Part shown: piece by piece, positions 23,401 through 30,786 of the stretch | How the letters are laid out: every line of letters starts with the position of its first letter | Position numbering within the stretch: the stretch's first letter is position 1 | NCBI GenBank assembly: GCA_965660855.1 | Contig: CBFIBM010000008.1 | Coordinates: 1-64,000 of the forward strand | Direction of reading: 5' to 3' | From: an uncultured bacterium | GTDB lineage: Bacteria; Fidelibacterota; Marinisomatia; Marinisomatales; UBA1611 | DNA length: 64,000 nt | Position numbers and translations under genes: made by a program | Notes under the pieces: model-generated | Seen by the model: the letters and a program-made list of their open reading frames with translations, nothing else | Databases searched by the model: none | Told to the model about the DNA's origin: nothing

Positions 23401-24723
23401 TTACAAGGTTAAAGAAAAAGAGTCAACCAATATTCCAGGGCATGAAGTTGCGCCTAGCGAGCGACCACCATAAGTACCGACTTCGGGATTAGTGTATAAT
23501 CTATCTTCGACTTCAGACAATTCATCACCAAAAAACCTATAAAAAGAATCGTCAAATCTCATGGTTTCAATTGGTGCAACAATTTCACCACCTTCTACCC
23601 AAAAACATGCATATCTGGTAAGTCCTGTTATGCGACCTCCTGGATTGTCGCTCCAGTTAAGGTAATGAATATTCGATAGGAATAGACCTTTATCAAGTTT
23701 TTTAACTACATCATTATGATTTAAATCTCCAGTTTCCATTCTTGGAGATCTTAAATATTCTCCAGTTTCAGCATAATTTGATTTTAAACCATATTCTTTA
23801 GCTGATCTTGAACTAACTAATGTATTTTTTAAATTGCCATTTTTAATAAGGGATAACTCGTTGGATGCCACCTCACCATCAGAATTAAACTTAGGACAGT
23901 ATCCAGGAGAAAAATCTTCTAAAATTGAAAATTTTGGAGATAAAGTTATATCATTATGTCTCATTTTTCCAAAGCCACTACAACCTTGTCTTAAAGAAGC
24001 TTCACTAATACCATTCCAAGAAAACATACCTAAAAAATCTGAAACTGCAGCTGATTCGAACCAAGTCCTGTAATCTCCCGTTTTCATTTTGATTGGCTTT
24101 CTTTCCATAAGAGATAATTTTTCTTTACTTCTATTAACATATTCTTCATAATCATTTTGATTCCAATCGTTACCTGAAAATGAACCTTTTACCATTTGAT
24201 GATTTTGAGTTACTAATGAATAATCTAAGTTATAAGTATCTGTTTCAAACCAATGATTTTGCCCCTTACTGTTTGCATTTCCTCTAAACATTTTTCCATT
24301 AGAAAAAATTCCAACAAAATCAACCTCAGACATCACAGGTAAAATCGCATCAACAGAATCTTCAAACATTAGTCCATTTGAGGATTTTTTCTCAATACTA
24401 GATCCCAAATTTTTTGGTAAAACTAAAAAAGGATCTTCTGGTAATTCTTTAACTTCTTCACGAAGCCTTGCGATCTCATTTCTTCCTCTTTTAAAATCAA
24501 GATCTTTTTTACCTGATATTGTAAATCCACCACTGGAAATTCGATTATTAGAAATAAATTTTAATTCTAATTCCGCATCATCTACAAGGCCCGTTTGCCG
24601 AACTGAAGCATTGTTGAAACGTATAAATTGACTATTTTCTCCTGATAATGAGAGTATTAAATCCTCTTCCTTGTTCAATTGACTAAATAATAATTCACTT
24701 ATATTTTTAAACTCCTTTTCCAC
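23401..24723 (-). CDS. tldE: TldE/PmbA-family non-catalytic subunit
   Basis: IRFNNA, HYLNWSD, TGLTRYACFWVEGGEI, MRFDDS; coupled to tldD. Confidence 0.88.
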   Translation of the reverse strand: MEKEFKNISELLFSQLNKEEDLILSLSGENSQFIRFNNASVRQTGLVDDAELELKFISNNRISSGGFTISGKKDLDFKRGRNEIARLREEVKELPEDPFLVLPKNLGSSIEKKSSNGLMFEDSVDAILPVMSEVDFVGIFSNGKMFRGNANSKGQNHWFETDTYNLDYSLVTQNHQMVKGSFSGNDWNQNDYEEYVNRSKEKLSLMERKPIKMKTGDYRTWFESAAVSDFLGMFSWNGISEASLRQGCSGFGKMRHNDITLSPKFSILEDFSPGYCPKFNSDGEVASNELSLIKNGNLKNTLVSSRSAKEYGLKSNYAETGEYLRSPRMETGDLNHNDVVKKLDKGLFLSNIHYLNWSDNPGGRITGLTRYACFWVEGGEIVAPIETMRFDDSFYRFFGDELSEVEDRLYTNPEVGTYGGRSLGATSCPGILVDSFSLTL

Positions 24724-26165
24724 TAGACTCCTCCAAAGACTTGAATTTTATCAAAAAGACATGCTGGAGATGCGTGACCAACTCTTATCACCTGATTTGG
24801 TTCACCTTTACCACAATTAGGTGTTCCATATATTCCAAATGTGTCAGTATCCCCTACTCCTTTCAAACTATTCCAAAAAGGAGTTGAGATTCCTCGATAG
24901 TTTGGATTTTTAAGAGTTTTTGTTAATTTTCCATTTTCTATTAATTTTCCATATTCACAACCAAATTGAAATTTATTTCTATAGTCATCGATTGACCAAG
25001 ATTTGTTGCTTTCAACATATACACCAAGTTCCACTTGACTAATTAAATCATCAAAACTTTTATCTCCTGGTTCTAAATTAATATTAGCCATTCTATCAAT
25101 AGGCGCTCTGTTCCAACTGCTCGCTCTAAAATTAGCAACACCATCTAAACCTGATCTTATTTGACTTTCCTGACCTCCAAGACCTCTTACTAGTAACCCA
25201 TCTTTAATTAAATATTCTTTAGTTGCTTTCAACCCTCCATCATCAAATGCATAAGATGCAAATTCTGATTCTAATGTTGGGTCAAATGTTATATTCATTA
25301 AATCAGAACCATATTTTAAAGAACCAAAATCTTCTAATTTAACAAAACTCCATCCGGCATAATTTCTTTCATCACCCAAAATTCTATCTACTTCAAGAGC
25401 ATGACCAATACTTTCATGAATTTGCAACATCATTTGGTCTGGAGCTATAACTAAATCCATTTCTCCTGTAGGACATTCTTCTGCATCTAAAAGCTCTATT
25501 GCTTGCGAACCAATTCTATTTGCATTCGCATAGATTTCATATTTATCAAAATATTCCATTCCCATTTGCCTACACGTACCTCTCATACCCCCAAATGTTC
25601 GAGTTTGTTGGTTTGCACCATCAGCTGCAGTTGCACTCAGGTCAAATTCAAACATCAAAAACTCTTGATTAATATCGCTGCCATTAGAACTAACAAAATT
25701 AAAATTTGATTCAATTACTTGACAAAGTGATGAAGCACTAACAATTTTTTCATTTACTTTGAGATGTTGATATGCTTCCAGTAAAATCTCATTTAACTGA
25801 CCCGCAGATAGAGATTGCTTATTTTTTATATAAGGAGATTTATAAGCTCCTTGATGAGGCGGTCTAGCTGTTAAATCAAAAGAATGTACTGCATGTTTTG
25901 AGGCAATTTTTGCTTGGTCAAATGCTTTTCTTGCAGCACTAGATATACCCTCTGAAGTCATTTTTGGAGTACCATAATAGCCAAATTGTCCATCAATTAG
26001 TATCTCAACCATTATTCCGTGTGTATATGAGGTTGAATTCATAACTGGAACTCCATCTCTTATCATTCTAGGCGTATGAACCTCATAAACTTCTCTTAAT
26101 CCGACCCAATCCGCAGGAACATCAATTGAACCTAATAGATTTTTTATATCTATATCTAATTTCAT
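24723..26165 (-). CDS. tldD: TldD metalloprotease
   Basis: HESIGHALE, DRMANINL, WSIDD, CGKGEP. Confidence 0.95.
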   Translation of the reverse strand: MKLDIDIKNLLGSIDVPADWVGLREVYEVHTPRMIRDGVPVMNSTSYTHGIMVEILIDGQFGYYGTPKMTSEGISSAARKAFDQAKIASKHAVHSFDLTARPPHQGAYKSPYIKNKQSLSAGQLNEILLEAYQHLKVNEKIVSASSLCQVIESNFNFVSSNGSDINQEFLMFEFDLSATAADGANQQTRTFGGMRGTCRQMGMEYFDKYEIYANANRIGSQAIELLDAEECPTGEMDLVIAPDQMMLQIHESIGHALEVDRILGDERNYAGWSFVKLEDFGSLKYGSDLMNITFDPTLESEFASYAFDDGGLKATKEYLIKDGLLVRGLGGQESQIRSGLDGVANFRASSWNRAPIDRMANINLEPGDKSFDDLISQVELGVYVESNKSWSIDDYRNKFQFGCEYGKLIENGKLTKTLKNPNYRGISTPFWNSLKGVGDTDTFGIYGTPNCGKGEPNQVIRVGHASPACLFDKIQVFGGV

Positions 26166-28263: not shown

Positions 28264-29742
28264 TTAAAAAATTTTATTCTCAAATGTAAGTTTGAAATTT
28301 TTGGCTTCCTTTTTGATGATTTTTTTGTATTTATTAGGACCACTATAAAAGATATGATTTTTGGTTTCAACATTATTATTTGTTAACAATTTTAATTCTT
28401 GTTTCCAATCTGGTAGACCGAATTTTGATTTCCCCCAAATATTATTTATCAAGGTAACATTAGTTTTAGTTTTAGATAAATCAGTGGACATAAACATTAA
28501 CTTTTCTGAAACTTCATGAGCAGATTTATCAATAAAAAATATATTATAAGTGAATATATTAATTTTTTCCTCTCCTTCAATTTCATTTAAAAACTTTGTA
28601 AACCATTCAAAGTATGTCTCATTTTCTATAAGCCAATAAAGACTAATTTTTTTCAAGGTTAAATTGTTTGATTTTTTATCGAAACGCAAAGCTATATCTT
28701 GAAGAATTGGGGCAATTTTTGATATTCCGTGTCCTACACCGATTAAGATAGCATGTTCTGTGTTAAGAATATTTCTACTTGAAGAACCATAGGGTCCATC
28801 AATTTTAAGGTTAAAATGAATGAGTTTATTTTCTTTATATTTTTCGAGAATTAATGAAAACATACTTCTAGTCCAATTATCTATTGACTTAATATGAAGT
28901 ACTAATTCACCATCTTTATTTATACGAATTATGTTAAACGGGTGCCATTCTACAGAGGATATATTTTTACAATTAACATAAATATAATCACCCGGAACAA
29001 ATTCAAAACCTATTGATGGTTTTAAAATTATTTCTAATGTCTCAGATGGTAATAAAAAAGCTGATGTAATTTCAGTACGAATATGATTCTTTTTCCTATT
29101 CAGAAGAATATTATAATAAGATATCATCTTAGGAATTAAAATTGATTGAAAGAATCCTATTTCCTGAACTTGAATTTCTTTATTTTTTTTGTTTTTATTT
29201 AAATTTTCTGAGGCAGAAAGTCCATTATTAGATGTAAGCCATTTTATTGGATTTACAGCAAACCCCTCCATAAAATCAGGAAAATCTTTAGCGATAATTA
29301 AAAATTCATTAAAATCAATTTTATCATTTTTATCTATATCTGCCTTAAAGAAAATTTCATCAACAAGTAAAGAAAGTTGAAAATCATCAAAATCAAGATT
29401 ATTCTGAATAAAACTTTGAACTATCAAAATTTTCAATTCTTTCTTATCTATAAATCCACTATTATCCAAATCATGTAAATTAAATGCAAATTTGATTTTG
29501 TCTTTTTTACTACCAAGAATAATTGTTTCAATTGTAGATAAAAATTCATGATGATCAATCCTTCCATTTTTATCCTTATCAAATAGGTCAAATAGTCTAT
29601 CTGACAAACTCCTATTTGATACTTCGAGTCCATCAAAAAACTCTTGCTTATCAATCAATTGATCTTCGCCAGAAAGTGATCGAAACTTATTCTTTAATTG
29701 TACAAGAAAAGGACCAGTAAGTTTATTTGATGTATTTAACAA
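28264..29742 (-). CDS. NOX5-like EF-hand plus FAD/NAD(P)-binding protein lacking the ferric-reductase membrane domain
   Basis: EF loops SGEDQLIDKQEF, DKDKNGRIDHHE, DLDNSGFIDKKE, DIDKNDKIDFNE; PGDYIY, EWHPF, IDGPYG, LIGVGHGI, FEWF, GLPDW; only about 50 aa between the modules. Confidence 0.88.
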   Translation of the reverse strand: MLNTSNKLTGPFLVQLKNKFRSLSGEDQLIDKQEFFDGLEVSNRSLSDRLFDLFDKDKNGRIDHHEFLSTIETIILGSKKDKIKFAFNLHDLDNSGFIDKKELKILIVQSFIQNNLDFDDFQLSLLVDEIFFKADIDKNDKIDFNEFLIIAKDFPDFMEGFAVNPIKWLTSNNGLSASENLNKNKKNKEIQVQEIGFFQSILIPKMISYYNILLNRKKNHIRTEITSAFLLPSETLEIILKPSIGFEFVPGDYIYVNCKNISSVEWHPFNIIRINKDGELVLHIKSIDNWTRSMFSLILEKYKENKLIHFNLKIDGPYGSSSRNILNTEHAILIGVGHGISKIAPILQDIALRFDKKSNNLTLKKISLYWLIENETYFEWFTKFLNEIEGEEKINIFTYNIFFIDKSAHEVSEKLMFMSTDLSKTKTNVTLINNIWGKSKFGLPDWKQELKLLTNNNVETKNHIFYSGPNKYKKIIKKEAKNFKLTFENKIF

Positions 29743-29832
29743 TTATTTTTTCAGTATTATGATTCTATATACTAGGTTAATTTATCTTATATACTTTAAT
29801 CATTAATAGAACTTTTTAAAAACGATTTATAC

Positions 29833-30786
29833 ATGATATATAATACAATTCTAGAGACAATTGGAAATACACCAGTTATTAAAATAAATAATATTTCAAA
29901 AGAAATTGAATGTGATATTTACGTTAAATGTGAATTTTTCAACCCTGCCGGTTCTATCAAAGATCGTATCGGTTACAGAATGGTTATTGATGCGCAAAAA
30001 TCTGGGAGGATTAAACCTGGAGATACCCTTATAGAACCCACTTCTGGTAATACCGGACAAGGCATAGCCTTAGCATGTGCTGTTCTGGGATATAAATGTA
30101 TCATAACTATGCCAGAAAAAATGAGTCAAGAGAAGCAAATAGCCCTTGAAGCATTAGGAGCAGAAATAATAAGAACTCCAACTGAAGCAGCATTTGATGA
30201 CCCTGAAAGCCATATACAAGTCGCTCAAAAGCTTCAAAAAAAAATTAAAAATTCTCATATTCTTGATCAATATGCTAACCCATCAAACCCTAAAGCGCAT
30301 TACGAAGGGACTGCTGAAGAAATCATTGAAGACTTTGGAGAAAATTTAGATATGGTTGTAATGGGTGTTGGTACCGGTGGAACAATTACAGGTGTTGCAA
30401 AACGTTTAAAAGAATTTTACTCTGATATTAGAATTATAGGAGCAGACCCTGTTGGTTCTATTTTAGGAGGAGGAAAAAAGGTTTCATCTTATTTAGTTGA
30501 AGGTATTGGTTATGATTTTTTTCCAGATGTTTTAGACAATAACCTAATCGATCAGTACATTAAGACAGAGGATGAAGAAGCATTTAAAATGTCTAGAAGA
30601 CTAATAAAAGAAGAGGGGTTACTCTGCGGTGGTTCTTGTGGGTCAGCAATGATAGCAGCTTTAAAAGCTGCAAAAGGCCTAACACAAAATCAAAAAGTCC
30701 TGGTTATTTTACCTGATAGTATCAGAAATTATATGACCAAATTTCCTAATGATAGTTGGATGATTGAAAATGGATTTGAAGTATAA
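29833..30786 (+). CDS. cbs: Cystathionine beta-synthase catalytic core (PLP-dependent)
   Basis: [60 protein letters not shown]. Confidence 0.88.

Follow-up and report, generated by a model that had tools for sequence, protein, structure and literature searches.

NADPH oxidase (NOX) enzymes are defined by a di-haem membrane domain fused to a flavin dehydrogenase, and reviews treat this membrane domain as obligatory. In NOX5, known from humans as well as from bacteria, a regulatory module with four EF-hands precedes both units. Here we describe a gene of an uncultured bacterium of the Fidelibacterota (Marinimicrobia), found on the 64,000-nucleotide stretch of contig CBFIBM010000008.1 that was analysed (hereafter, the window), which encodes the EF-hand module and the dehydrogenase of NOX5 without the membrane domain between them. 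The window DNA is AT-rich and bacterial (GC 26-35%), and its protein, labelled P0001, represents a real, conserved and previously undescribed family. A preliminary description of the locus had allowed for the architecture being already on record. We found no EF-hand plus dehydrogenase protein without a membrane domain described in open-licence PMC papers or in bioRxiv preprints, so that an account elsewhere is possible, and the available portions of two evolutionary surveys (PMC3591440, PMC9421330) contain no NOX form without this domain.

The direct joining of the two modules, with no six-helix segment in between, was the central claim of the preliminary description, and it is borne out by domain, sequence and structure comparisons (Table 1). 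Matches to Pfam EF-hand_1/6/7 span residues 48-151, and those to FAD_binding_8 (73.4 bits) and NAD_binding_6 (63 bits) both exceed the Pfam cut-offs; the Pfam scan gave no match of P0001 to Ferric_reduct (PF01794) at E-values up to 1. The EF-hand and dehydrogenase modules are separated by 53 residues (170-222). Transmembrane segments were assessed with a simple Kyte-Doolittle hydropathy scan, in which no 19-residue window of P0001 rises above 1.21, compared with about six hydrophobic segments in a full-length relative. Among PDB sequences, human NOX5 is the best phmmer match (E 3.3e-52), in three stretches: the EF-hand module aligns to human residues 13-168 (stretch E 2.4e-22), residues 198-296 to human 374-474, which comprise the end of the sixth transmembrane helix (TM6) and the FAD sub-domain, and residues 297-487 to the NAD sub-domain. 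A crystal construct of the Cylindrospermum NOX5 dehydrogenase follows (E 4e-44). For an AlphaFold2 model built from 62 family sequences, with a mean predicted local distance difference test score (pLDDT) of 72, Foldseek also ranks human NOX5 first, and the modelled dehydrogenase superposes on that of the bacterial csNOX5 with a TM-score of 0.86 (normalised to target) and a root-mean-square deviation of 2.8. In blocks of ten residues, pLDDT is about 66-90 in the EF-hand module, about 63-90 in the dehydrogenase and below 50 at residues 160-219. A predicted complex of the dehydrogenase (residues 223-492) and the EF-hand module (residues 1-170) with FAD and three Ca ions scored 0.23 and 0.19, below the mark of 0.32, and is evidence neither way.

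The EF-hands are also as first described, four loops with a non-canonical first one; loop 1 resembles that of human NOX5, and loops 2-4 are canonical. Within the NAD sub-domain lie a GxGxS[R/K] motif (residues 337-342), an acidic end of strand beta-2 (373-374), an REFBD-equivalent insert (407-440) and an SG pair (467-468). Searches of NCBIfam returned sub-threshold matches only, to Fre/LuxG flavin reductases (NF005963 and NF052252; 29.7 bits against a cut-off of 230 and 29.8 against 340). Homologues have been annotated automatically at their sources as "hypothetical protein", "Ca2+-binding EF-hand superfamily protein", "ferredoxin-NADP reductase" and [quoted passage not shown].

The membrane-less form is widespread in databases. 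A word-indexed search returned 119 homologues, mostly 492-499 amino acids long, and 117 of them are on record without PF01794; the length and the architecture are common to more than 100 database clusters, at identities from 99% down to 38%. Of the two homologues outside this pattern, one is a fragment of full-length NOX5 from a bacterium and the other a NOX5-like protein from a mite. When a representative library of 1.84 billion proteins was searched, just two of the top 150 matches, P0013 and P0123, ran over the full length in a single stretch; both belong to the membrane-less family, and the next two-domain matches among the 150 were proteins of 630-690 amino acids matching in two stretches. 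Domain scans of 12 of these 150 matches found eight with PF01794, one family member (P0123), two with the dehydrogenase only and one FAD-only fragment. Two candidates for independent membrane-less forms were rejected: P0216 begins within TM6, P0229 has a duplicated segment, and both carry canonical HPFT and GIGVTP motifs and are read as fragments or mis-assemblies. A homologue search confined to lengths of 862-2460 amino acids gave a single fungal protein. As a separate observation from the representative library, proteins of 1,660-3,072 amino acids (P0122, P0124-P0126, P0128-P0131) match the NOX5-type EF-hand module in 8-13 stretches, with E-values down to 3e-111, and look like giant arrays of this module.

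Its taxonomic distribution is narrow. Across 201 genomes sampled from the phylum the query found matches in six, the window's own genome included, and all six fall into one GTDB family; there was no match in 194 sampled genomes from 29 other Fidelibacterota families. Of the 54 genomes in that family 46 gave a match; in G047 and G228 the match was to full-length NOX5 only, and the membrane-less form is carried by 44 of the 54, in 13 of 15 genera. The family-specific search patterns recovered 43 loci from species-representative genomes, 40 membrane-less and three full-length, and every named record among them is Candidatus Neomarinimicrobiota or Marinimicrobia. The nearest ESM Atlas clusters are likewise named Fidelibacterota. 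Two records with the membrane-less form (L049 and L085) are not labelled as metagenome-assembled genomes (MAGs).

The exact sequence (at least 96% of sampled words) is present in sequencing runs of six studies. The linker region at 29077-29235 is spanned, without insertions or deletions, by a DNA contig (28818-30300) and by a contig from an RNA library (29038-29263). At identities of 95% or higher, parts of the gene are also matched by contigs of three RNA libraries, which come from three studies; the gene is possibly transcribed, but such libraries can contain DNA. Ratios of nonsynonymous to synonymous substitutions (dN/dS) were calculated after Nei-Gojobori for 26 genes, two of 28 having been dropped because the N-terminal anchor was absent; in the three unsaturated pairs (dS 0.14-0.50) the ratio is 0.03-0.08 in the EF-hand part, 0.05-0.27 in the linker, 0.07-0.12 in the FAD part and 0.05-0.11 in the NAD part. 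Purifying selection on the membrane-less family is strong.

These observations bear on whether the architecture could be an artefact, that is a private deletion, a misassembly or a NOX5 gene in decay, for which we see a negligible probability. The preliminary description had left room for such an outcome, should close relatives all keep the transmembrane domain or should the junction not be spanned, and neither turned out to be so: some relatives are without that domain, and contigs span 29079-29235. The artefact draws no support except from one copy in genome G214 (G214:C43:15703-17179), which is split by an internal TAA into two pieces that overlap, and may be a pseudogene or a sequencing error. 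It is refuted by the same length and architecture in more than 100 clusters from many assemblies, by the spread over 44 of the 54 genomes and the two records not labelled as MAGs, by the contigs across the junction and by the purifying selection. The architecture is confirmed as real, neither a private deletion nor a misassembly.

Full-length NOX5 also occurs in the same bacterial family. Complete NOX5-like genes of 662-663 amino acids, with EF-hands, PF01794 and dehydrogenase, are present in G228 (genus g2) and G220 (genus g87), and G047 (genus g2) has the same gene cut by a contig end. They carry the canonical HPFT, GIGVTP and FCG motifs and a terminal ENF, and stand at a different locus from the membrane-less gene. 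G220 is the only genome with both forms. The membrane-less form is absent from all four genomes of genus g2 (G047, G177, G228, G229), so that the two spreads are nearly complementary: full-length in G047 and G228 of genus g2, membrane-less in 44 of the 50 other genomes of the family. This pattern suggests a changed use of the NOX module in these organisms. In the regions L035:5507-13001 (G228) and L036:5229-12967 (G220), the full-length genes adjoin a same-strand run of multihaem cytochrome c genes, of the families Cytochrome_C7, C554, NapC/NirT and MtrC-like, together with a protein of 450-500 amino acids without a Pfam family. This hints at periplasmic or extracellular cytochromes, in place of O2, as possible electron acceptors of the full-length NOX5 of these bacteria.

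The closest full-length relatives in databases are the cyanobacterial NOX5 proteins of Planktothrix, Tychonema, Cylindrospermum and Acaryochloris, with more distant ones in Kapabacteria and Myxococcales. A quick maximum-likelihood tree, with support from the Shimodaira-Hasegawa-like approximate likelihood ratio test (SH-aLRT) only, was built from 47 rows (14 of 107 family members, 31 hand-picked database proteins and the two in-family full-length genes) and 492 of 946 columns, kept after the transmembrane columns had been removed. In this tree the membrane-less family forms one clade (SH-aLRT 100) on a stem of 1.03 substitutions per site, and groups with the cyanobacterial and in-family full-length NOX5 (support 88, not starred), the order inside this group being a polytomy.

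A trace of the lost domain is retained in the linker. About 30 residues with the consensus QVQDIG.FQWLLIPRLI..YN.L.NRKKNR correspond to the end of TM6, with Q191, P204 and N211 invariant. The central Gly of TM6 in full-length NOX5 has become Arg or Lys in 107 of 107 members (Arg in 94 and Lys in 13, position 205), and the flanks on both sides are basic. With a profile made from the transmembrane region of full-length NOX5, 116 domain matches were obtained in 101 of 107 linkers; 98 of these matches begin at positions 180-238, the TM6 end, and 18 lie in the N-terminal overlap. A second remnant, suggested by one MAFFT alignment in which IQVQDIG.F would be the cytosolic loop between the second and third transmembrane helices, was rejected, the profile having no match at positions 60-179. 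The simplest history is one in which the family arose once, when a bacterial NOX5 lost its di-haem transmembrane domain; from the nested position of the clade and the TM6 remnant we infer loss rather than gain, the analysis being unrooted. In such a history, a bacterial NOX5 would have been duplicated, the part from the first transmembrane helix (TM1) to the middle of TM6 lost, and a burst of change followed by stasis.

Three functions had been offered in the preliminary description: a soluble Ca-gated flavin reductase, a pseudo-enzyme Ca sensor, or half of a split NOX. The first is now the best supported, by analogy with the isolated SpNOX dehydrogenase and E. coli Fre and by the flavin-stacking residues that are kept, and the split NOX is disfavoured by the search for PF01794. 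We consider P0001 a candidate Ca-responsive, soluble or peripheral reductase of the flavin type, with putative flavin binding, electron donor, Ca gating and acceptor, and put the chances of this reading at about even. The fuller proposal is more tentative: that this could be the first natural soluble NOX, in which the NOX5 EF-hand module would gate an NADH-dependent flavoprotein, active in the cytoplasm or at the inner membrane face and reducing flavins, iron or O2, and which would have arisen in abundant uncultured marine Marinimicrobia/SAR406 by loss of the haem domain and rapid re-tuning of the cofactor site.

Residues were counted in 107 family sequences of 485-510 amino acids, 13 shorter or longer ones having been dropped, and the invariance of the EF loops and of the N-terminal motif was judged in 62 sequences. 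Invariant or nearly so are W266, P268, F269, D315-G316-P317-Y318-G319, G339, A344, W370, Y377, W380, F381, P444, W446, F465, G468 and P469. The cofactor site points to a working, re-tuned site rather than a decayed one, because the flavin sandwich (Phe269 and the terminal Phe) and the glycine-rich nucleotide loop are retained and the replacements are uniform. Since EF loops 2-4 have invariant chelating residues, the protein is predicted to sense Ca. The N-terminal motif is one that full-length NOX5 does not have; its N3 and S5 show no variation, and K7, L8, G10, P11, F12 and L13 are conserved in at least 90% of the sequences.

The nature of the donor can be approached in the same way. An acidic residue at the end of strand beta-2 favours NADH, as in cytochrome b5 reductase. 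The preliminary description had taken the change of a NOX Arg to Glu at this place as a hint at NADH; that column proved to be variable (Glu 51, Asp 18, Lys 10 and Ser 9 of 107). What stands is that two columns here are mostly acidic, the neighbouring one with Asp in 82 and Asn in 23 (Asp or Glu in 83 of 107), and these acidic residues suggest NADH as donor.

The proposed mechanism would begin with Ca binding to EF loops 2-4, by which the EF-hand module would become ordered. NADH would be the more likely donor in most members. As there are no haems to take up the electrons, their acceptor would be soluble or at the membrane surface; candidates are free flavin, ferric chelates, a quinone, a small redox protein and O2. 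Such a protein would act as a Ca-gated reductase of the flavin or diaphorase type, akin to E. coli Fre or to the SpNOX dehydrogenase in isolation, and these two precedents make a reductase of this type the most economical proposal. The protein is probably cytoplasmic and possibly associated peripherally with the membrane. Judging from its predicted architecture, electron transfer across the membrane by the NOX route, including superoxide output, is impossible without haems.

Several observations weigh against a Ca-responsive reductase, and most concern the cofactor site. The substitutions listed in the preliminary description are all present when P0001 is set against full-length relatives; compared with the in-family ones, HPFT has become HPFN, GIGVTP has become GHGISK, WQNR has become WLIE, FCG has become YSG and QENF has become NKIF. 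Across the 107 family members, Tyr takes the place of the His of HPFT in 90 (His in 14) and Asn that of its Thr in 93 (Thr in 11), with the Pro and Phe kept in 107 of 107 each; the Pro of GxGxxP is changed in all 107 (Arg 65, Lys 42), and the Cys of CG is Ser in 94 (Cys in 12). The names HPFT, GxGxxP and CG are those which we take to be usual for these motifs; the residues themselves were read from full-length relatives, which carry HPFT, GIGVTP and CG. Equivalent His and Pro substitutions in human NOX2 go with lost FAD or NADPH binding in chronic granulomatous disease, a piece of unverified background whose terms were not found in the review that was searched. The Cys of CG is called a conserved active-site cysteine in the available part of PMC11956017. 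The NAD_binding_6 score of 63 bits compares with 92-132 bits in eleven other NOX-type proteins or fragments scanned with this domain. The same caution applies to Ca. In csNOX5, according to the accessible part of PMC7317449, Asp611 and Asp631 are required for Ca activation; both are kept in the full-length Marinimicrobia genes, whereas the corresponding columns, in a loop of uncertain alignment, hold Glu or Asp in 62 of 107 members and Asp in 21. A further acidic column, three residues downstream, has Asp in 74 of 107. With the activation Asp residues apparently not conserved, the argument that Ca switches catalysis is weakened, and Ca coupling may differ from that of NOX5 or not operate. Furthermore, the position of the TM6 remnant is not fixed by the AlphaFold2 model, the linker having a pLDDT below 50, and the gene neighbourhood offers no functional clue and pinpoints no acceptor. 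In any case, P0001 is not to be filed as an NADPH oxidase, because it is without the membrane domain and departs from NOX5 in all three motifs.

The same replacements could mean that the dehydrogenase has given up hydride transfer and serves as a scaffold or a nucleotide- or flavin-sensing module, set by the EF-hand module and regulating another protein. We consider such a pseudo-enzyme Ca sensor unlikely, though it would account for four hallmarks replaced family-wide (His to Tyr, Thr to Asn, Pro to Arg or Lys, Cys to Ser), for the long stem as a burst of change after the loss of the transmembrane domain, for the low NAD_binding_6 score and for the activation Asp residues apparently not being conserved, and the family's own N-terminal motif could be a docking peptide. 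It sits less well with the retention of the residues around the isoalloxazine ring (F269 and, in 92 of 107, the terminal Phe) and of the GPYG, GxG and FxSGP cores, nor would it lead one to expect replacements that are uniform instead of scattered and FAD and NAD parts whose dN/dS matches the low values of the EF-hand part. Fre, which is active, likewise has no motif Pro, and the gene context indicates no partner to be regulated. A partner is also what the remaining alternative calls for, in which P0001 would be half of a two-component system, its TM6-end helix and basic linker docking on a separate membrane redox protein, or on the membrane itself, and feeding electrons as Fre does to MsrQ. 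That pair is a precedent for a split NOX-like chain (cited in the available part of PMC11031084), the TM6 remnant is conserved like the domain cores and reaches a Kyte-Doolittle value (19 residues) of at least 1.6 in 33 of 107 members, and the basic stretch before it recalls the basic linker of human NOX5 that regulates membrane interaction (PMC7317449, in the part available). Yet PF01794 was found neither in the window's genome (84% complete) nor, at E 1e-3 or better, in 11 of the 12 carrier genomes with a completeness of at least 90%, the search covering this haem-protein family only; the twelfth, G220, has it only inside its 663-amino-acid NOX5. Among the 54 genomes of the family, five have PF01794, above the cut-off in three and each time inside full-length NOX5. 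No membrane cytochrome gene occurs among the 26 neighbouring open reading frames scanned (14569-41840), in agreement with the initial remark that no partner membrane gene is adjacent, and the Arg or Lys in place of the TM6 Gly in 107 of 107 members, with basic flanks, argues against a membrane-spanning helix. We regard this two-component arrangement as improbable, more so than the pseudo-enzyme.

The membrane-less family breaks the definition of the NOX family. Its members show that the cytosolic half of a NOX exists alone, conserved and under purifying selection, with the Ca sensor kept and the haems dropped. P0001 is also a candidate Ca-regulated bacterial enzyme. If the fuller proposal of a natural soluble NOX is correct, the regulatory unit of NOX5 (EF-hands and dehydrogenase) would work on its own, P0001 would be a soluble natural model of the coupling between the two, and Ca signalling would be indicated as a control of redox metabolism in a free-living marine bacterium. 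The recombinant EF-hand domain of csNOX5 is unstable and mostly insoluble, as stated in the part of PMC7317449 available, and the family is a possible naturally soluble system for studying EF-hand control of the dehydrogenase.

The gene is convergent with an alpha/beta-hydrolase gene and divergent from a gene for a pyridoxal-phosphate (PLP)-dependent enzyme (PALP), which is followed by one for a TlpA-like thiol-disulfide oxidoreductase. PALP is adjacent in 30 of 32 loci, and in the other two the contig ends there. Genus g2 has the same PALP beside the same SDR and flavin mononucleotide (FMN)-reductase-like genes, with no NOX5-like gene between them. A functional link to PALP was rejected, because g2 keeps the PALP-SDR order without the NOX5-like gene, and the adjacency is conserved gene order, not coupling. 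In the 24 intergenic regions compared by eye, the blocks TAATTTAT and ATGTTTTCCATGTTAAGAT recur, the latter just upstream of the gene. The start codon, also judged by eye, is TTG in most loci, and some loci, the window not among them, have a short upstream ATG frame that overlaps the start. A few kilobases from the gene, at 23401-26165, lies a tandem pair of PmbA/TldD-like metallopeptidase genes, after which comes an Hsp20 gene; in several related loci, too, the NOX5-like gene is flanked by these TldD-like and Hsp20 genes.

Table 1. The membrane-less NOX5 paralogue and its divergent neighbour: positions of features in the window
Feature	Position	Strand	Basis
Whole gene, membrane-less NOX5 paralogue	28264..29742	-	Open reading frame and translation: single open frame, 492 aa + stop, TTG start; Pfam
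Family-specific N-terminal motif, aa 1-14, consensus M-I-N-x-S-K-K-L-x-G-P-F-L	29701..29742	-	Family alignment
NOX5-type EF-hand regulatory module, aa 15-169, four EF-hands	29236..29700	-	Pfam EF-hand_1/6/7; human NOX5 alignment
EF loop 1, aa 24-35, non-canonical like human NOX5	29638..29673	-	Sequence and human NOX5 alignment; G25, I30, E34 invariant
EF loop 2, aa 55-66, canonical	29545..29580	-	D55, D57, D63, E66 invariant, 62 sequences
EF loop 3, aa 91-102, canonical	29437..29472	-	D91, D93, G96, D99, E102 invariant
EF loop 4, aa 135-146, canonical	29305..29340	-	D135, D137, E146 invariant; D143 at least 90%
Variable Lys/Asn-rich basic linker, aa 170-190, in place of TM1-TM5	29173..29235	-	Family alignment; pLDDT <50
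Conserved remnant of TM6 end and transmembrane-dehydrogenase hinge, aa 191-220	29083..29172	-	Human NOX5 374-398 alignment; transmembrane-region profile
FAD_binding_8 sub-domain, aa 225-322; W-H-P-F-N aa 266-270; GPYG aa 316-319	28777..29070	-	Pfam E 1.9e-20
NAD_binding_6 sub-domain, aa 331-478	28309..28752	-	Pfam E 4.6e-17
C-terminal Phe492, last residue	28267..28269	-	Phe last in 92/107 members; both full-length relatives end in Phe too
Divergent intergenic region, 90 bp, between window gene and PALP gene	29743..29832	.	Conserved blocks, by eye
PLP-dependent enzyme (PALP; CysK/CBS-like), divergent	29833..30786	+	Pfam PALP E 3e-80

Bacterial NOX5 is a known system close to the membrane-less family, as seen in csNOX5 (PDB 5o0x, 8cap) and in the in-family full-length genes (L035, L036). 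Common to both are the N-terminal module of four EF-hands (39% identity to the in-family gene), the dehydrogenase of FAD_binding_8 and NAD_binding_6 (about 30% identity, fold TM-score 0.86), the TM6 end and hinge, the NOX-specific insert in the NAD sub-domain and the terminal Phe. The membrane-less family differs in being without TM1 to most of TM6, including the four haem His, in the changed HPFT, GxGxxP and CG motifs, in the apparently unconserved activation Asp, in its extra N-terminal motif and in its locus. Human NOX5 (PDB 8u7y, 8u85, 8u87; 6sz5), the best PDB sequence match over the EF-hands, the TM6 end and the FAD and NAD sub-domains, has the membrane domain, which the window protein does not.

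E. coli Fre is likewise a soluble reductase of the FNR type with two sub-domains, as predicted for the window protein, and its structure (1qfj) ranks 26 in the Foldseek search. Both proteins are without the motif Pro (GGTGFSY in Fre, GHGISK in P0001), and Fre too has a Ser before the Pro site. Unlike the window protein, Fre has RPFS and neither EF-hand module, NOX-specific insert nor TM6 remnant, and the identity is 19%; the weak NCBIfam match (E 3.6e-7, below the equivalog cut-off) indicates that the window protein is not a Fre equivalog. Fre is the partner of MsrQ, whereas no MsrQ-type (PF01794) partner was found in 11 of the 12 carrier genomes at least 90% complete. The isolated SpNOX dehydrogenase, whose Foldseek similarity is weaker (rank 28), is also a NOX dehydrogenase without a transmembrane partner, and offers the functional model for the window protein: according to the available part of PMC11031084, it is a flavin reductase with no preference between NADH and NADPH, and flavin is its weakly bound co-substrate. 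It is, however, a laboratory truncation without EF-hands, whereas the window protein is natural, conserved and equipped with a Ca module.

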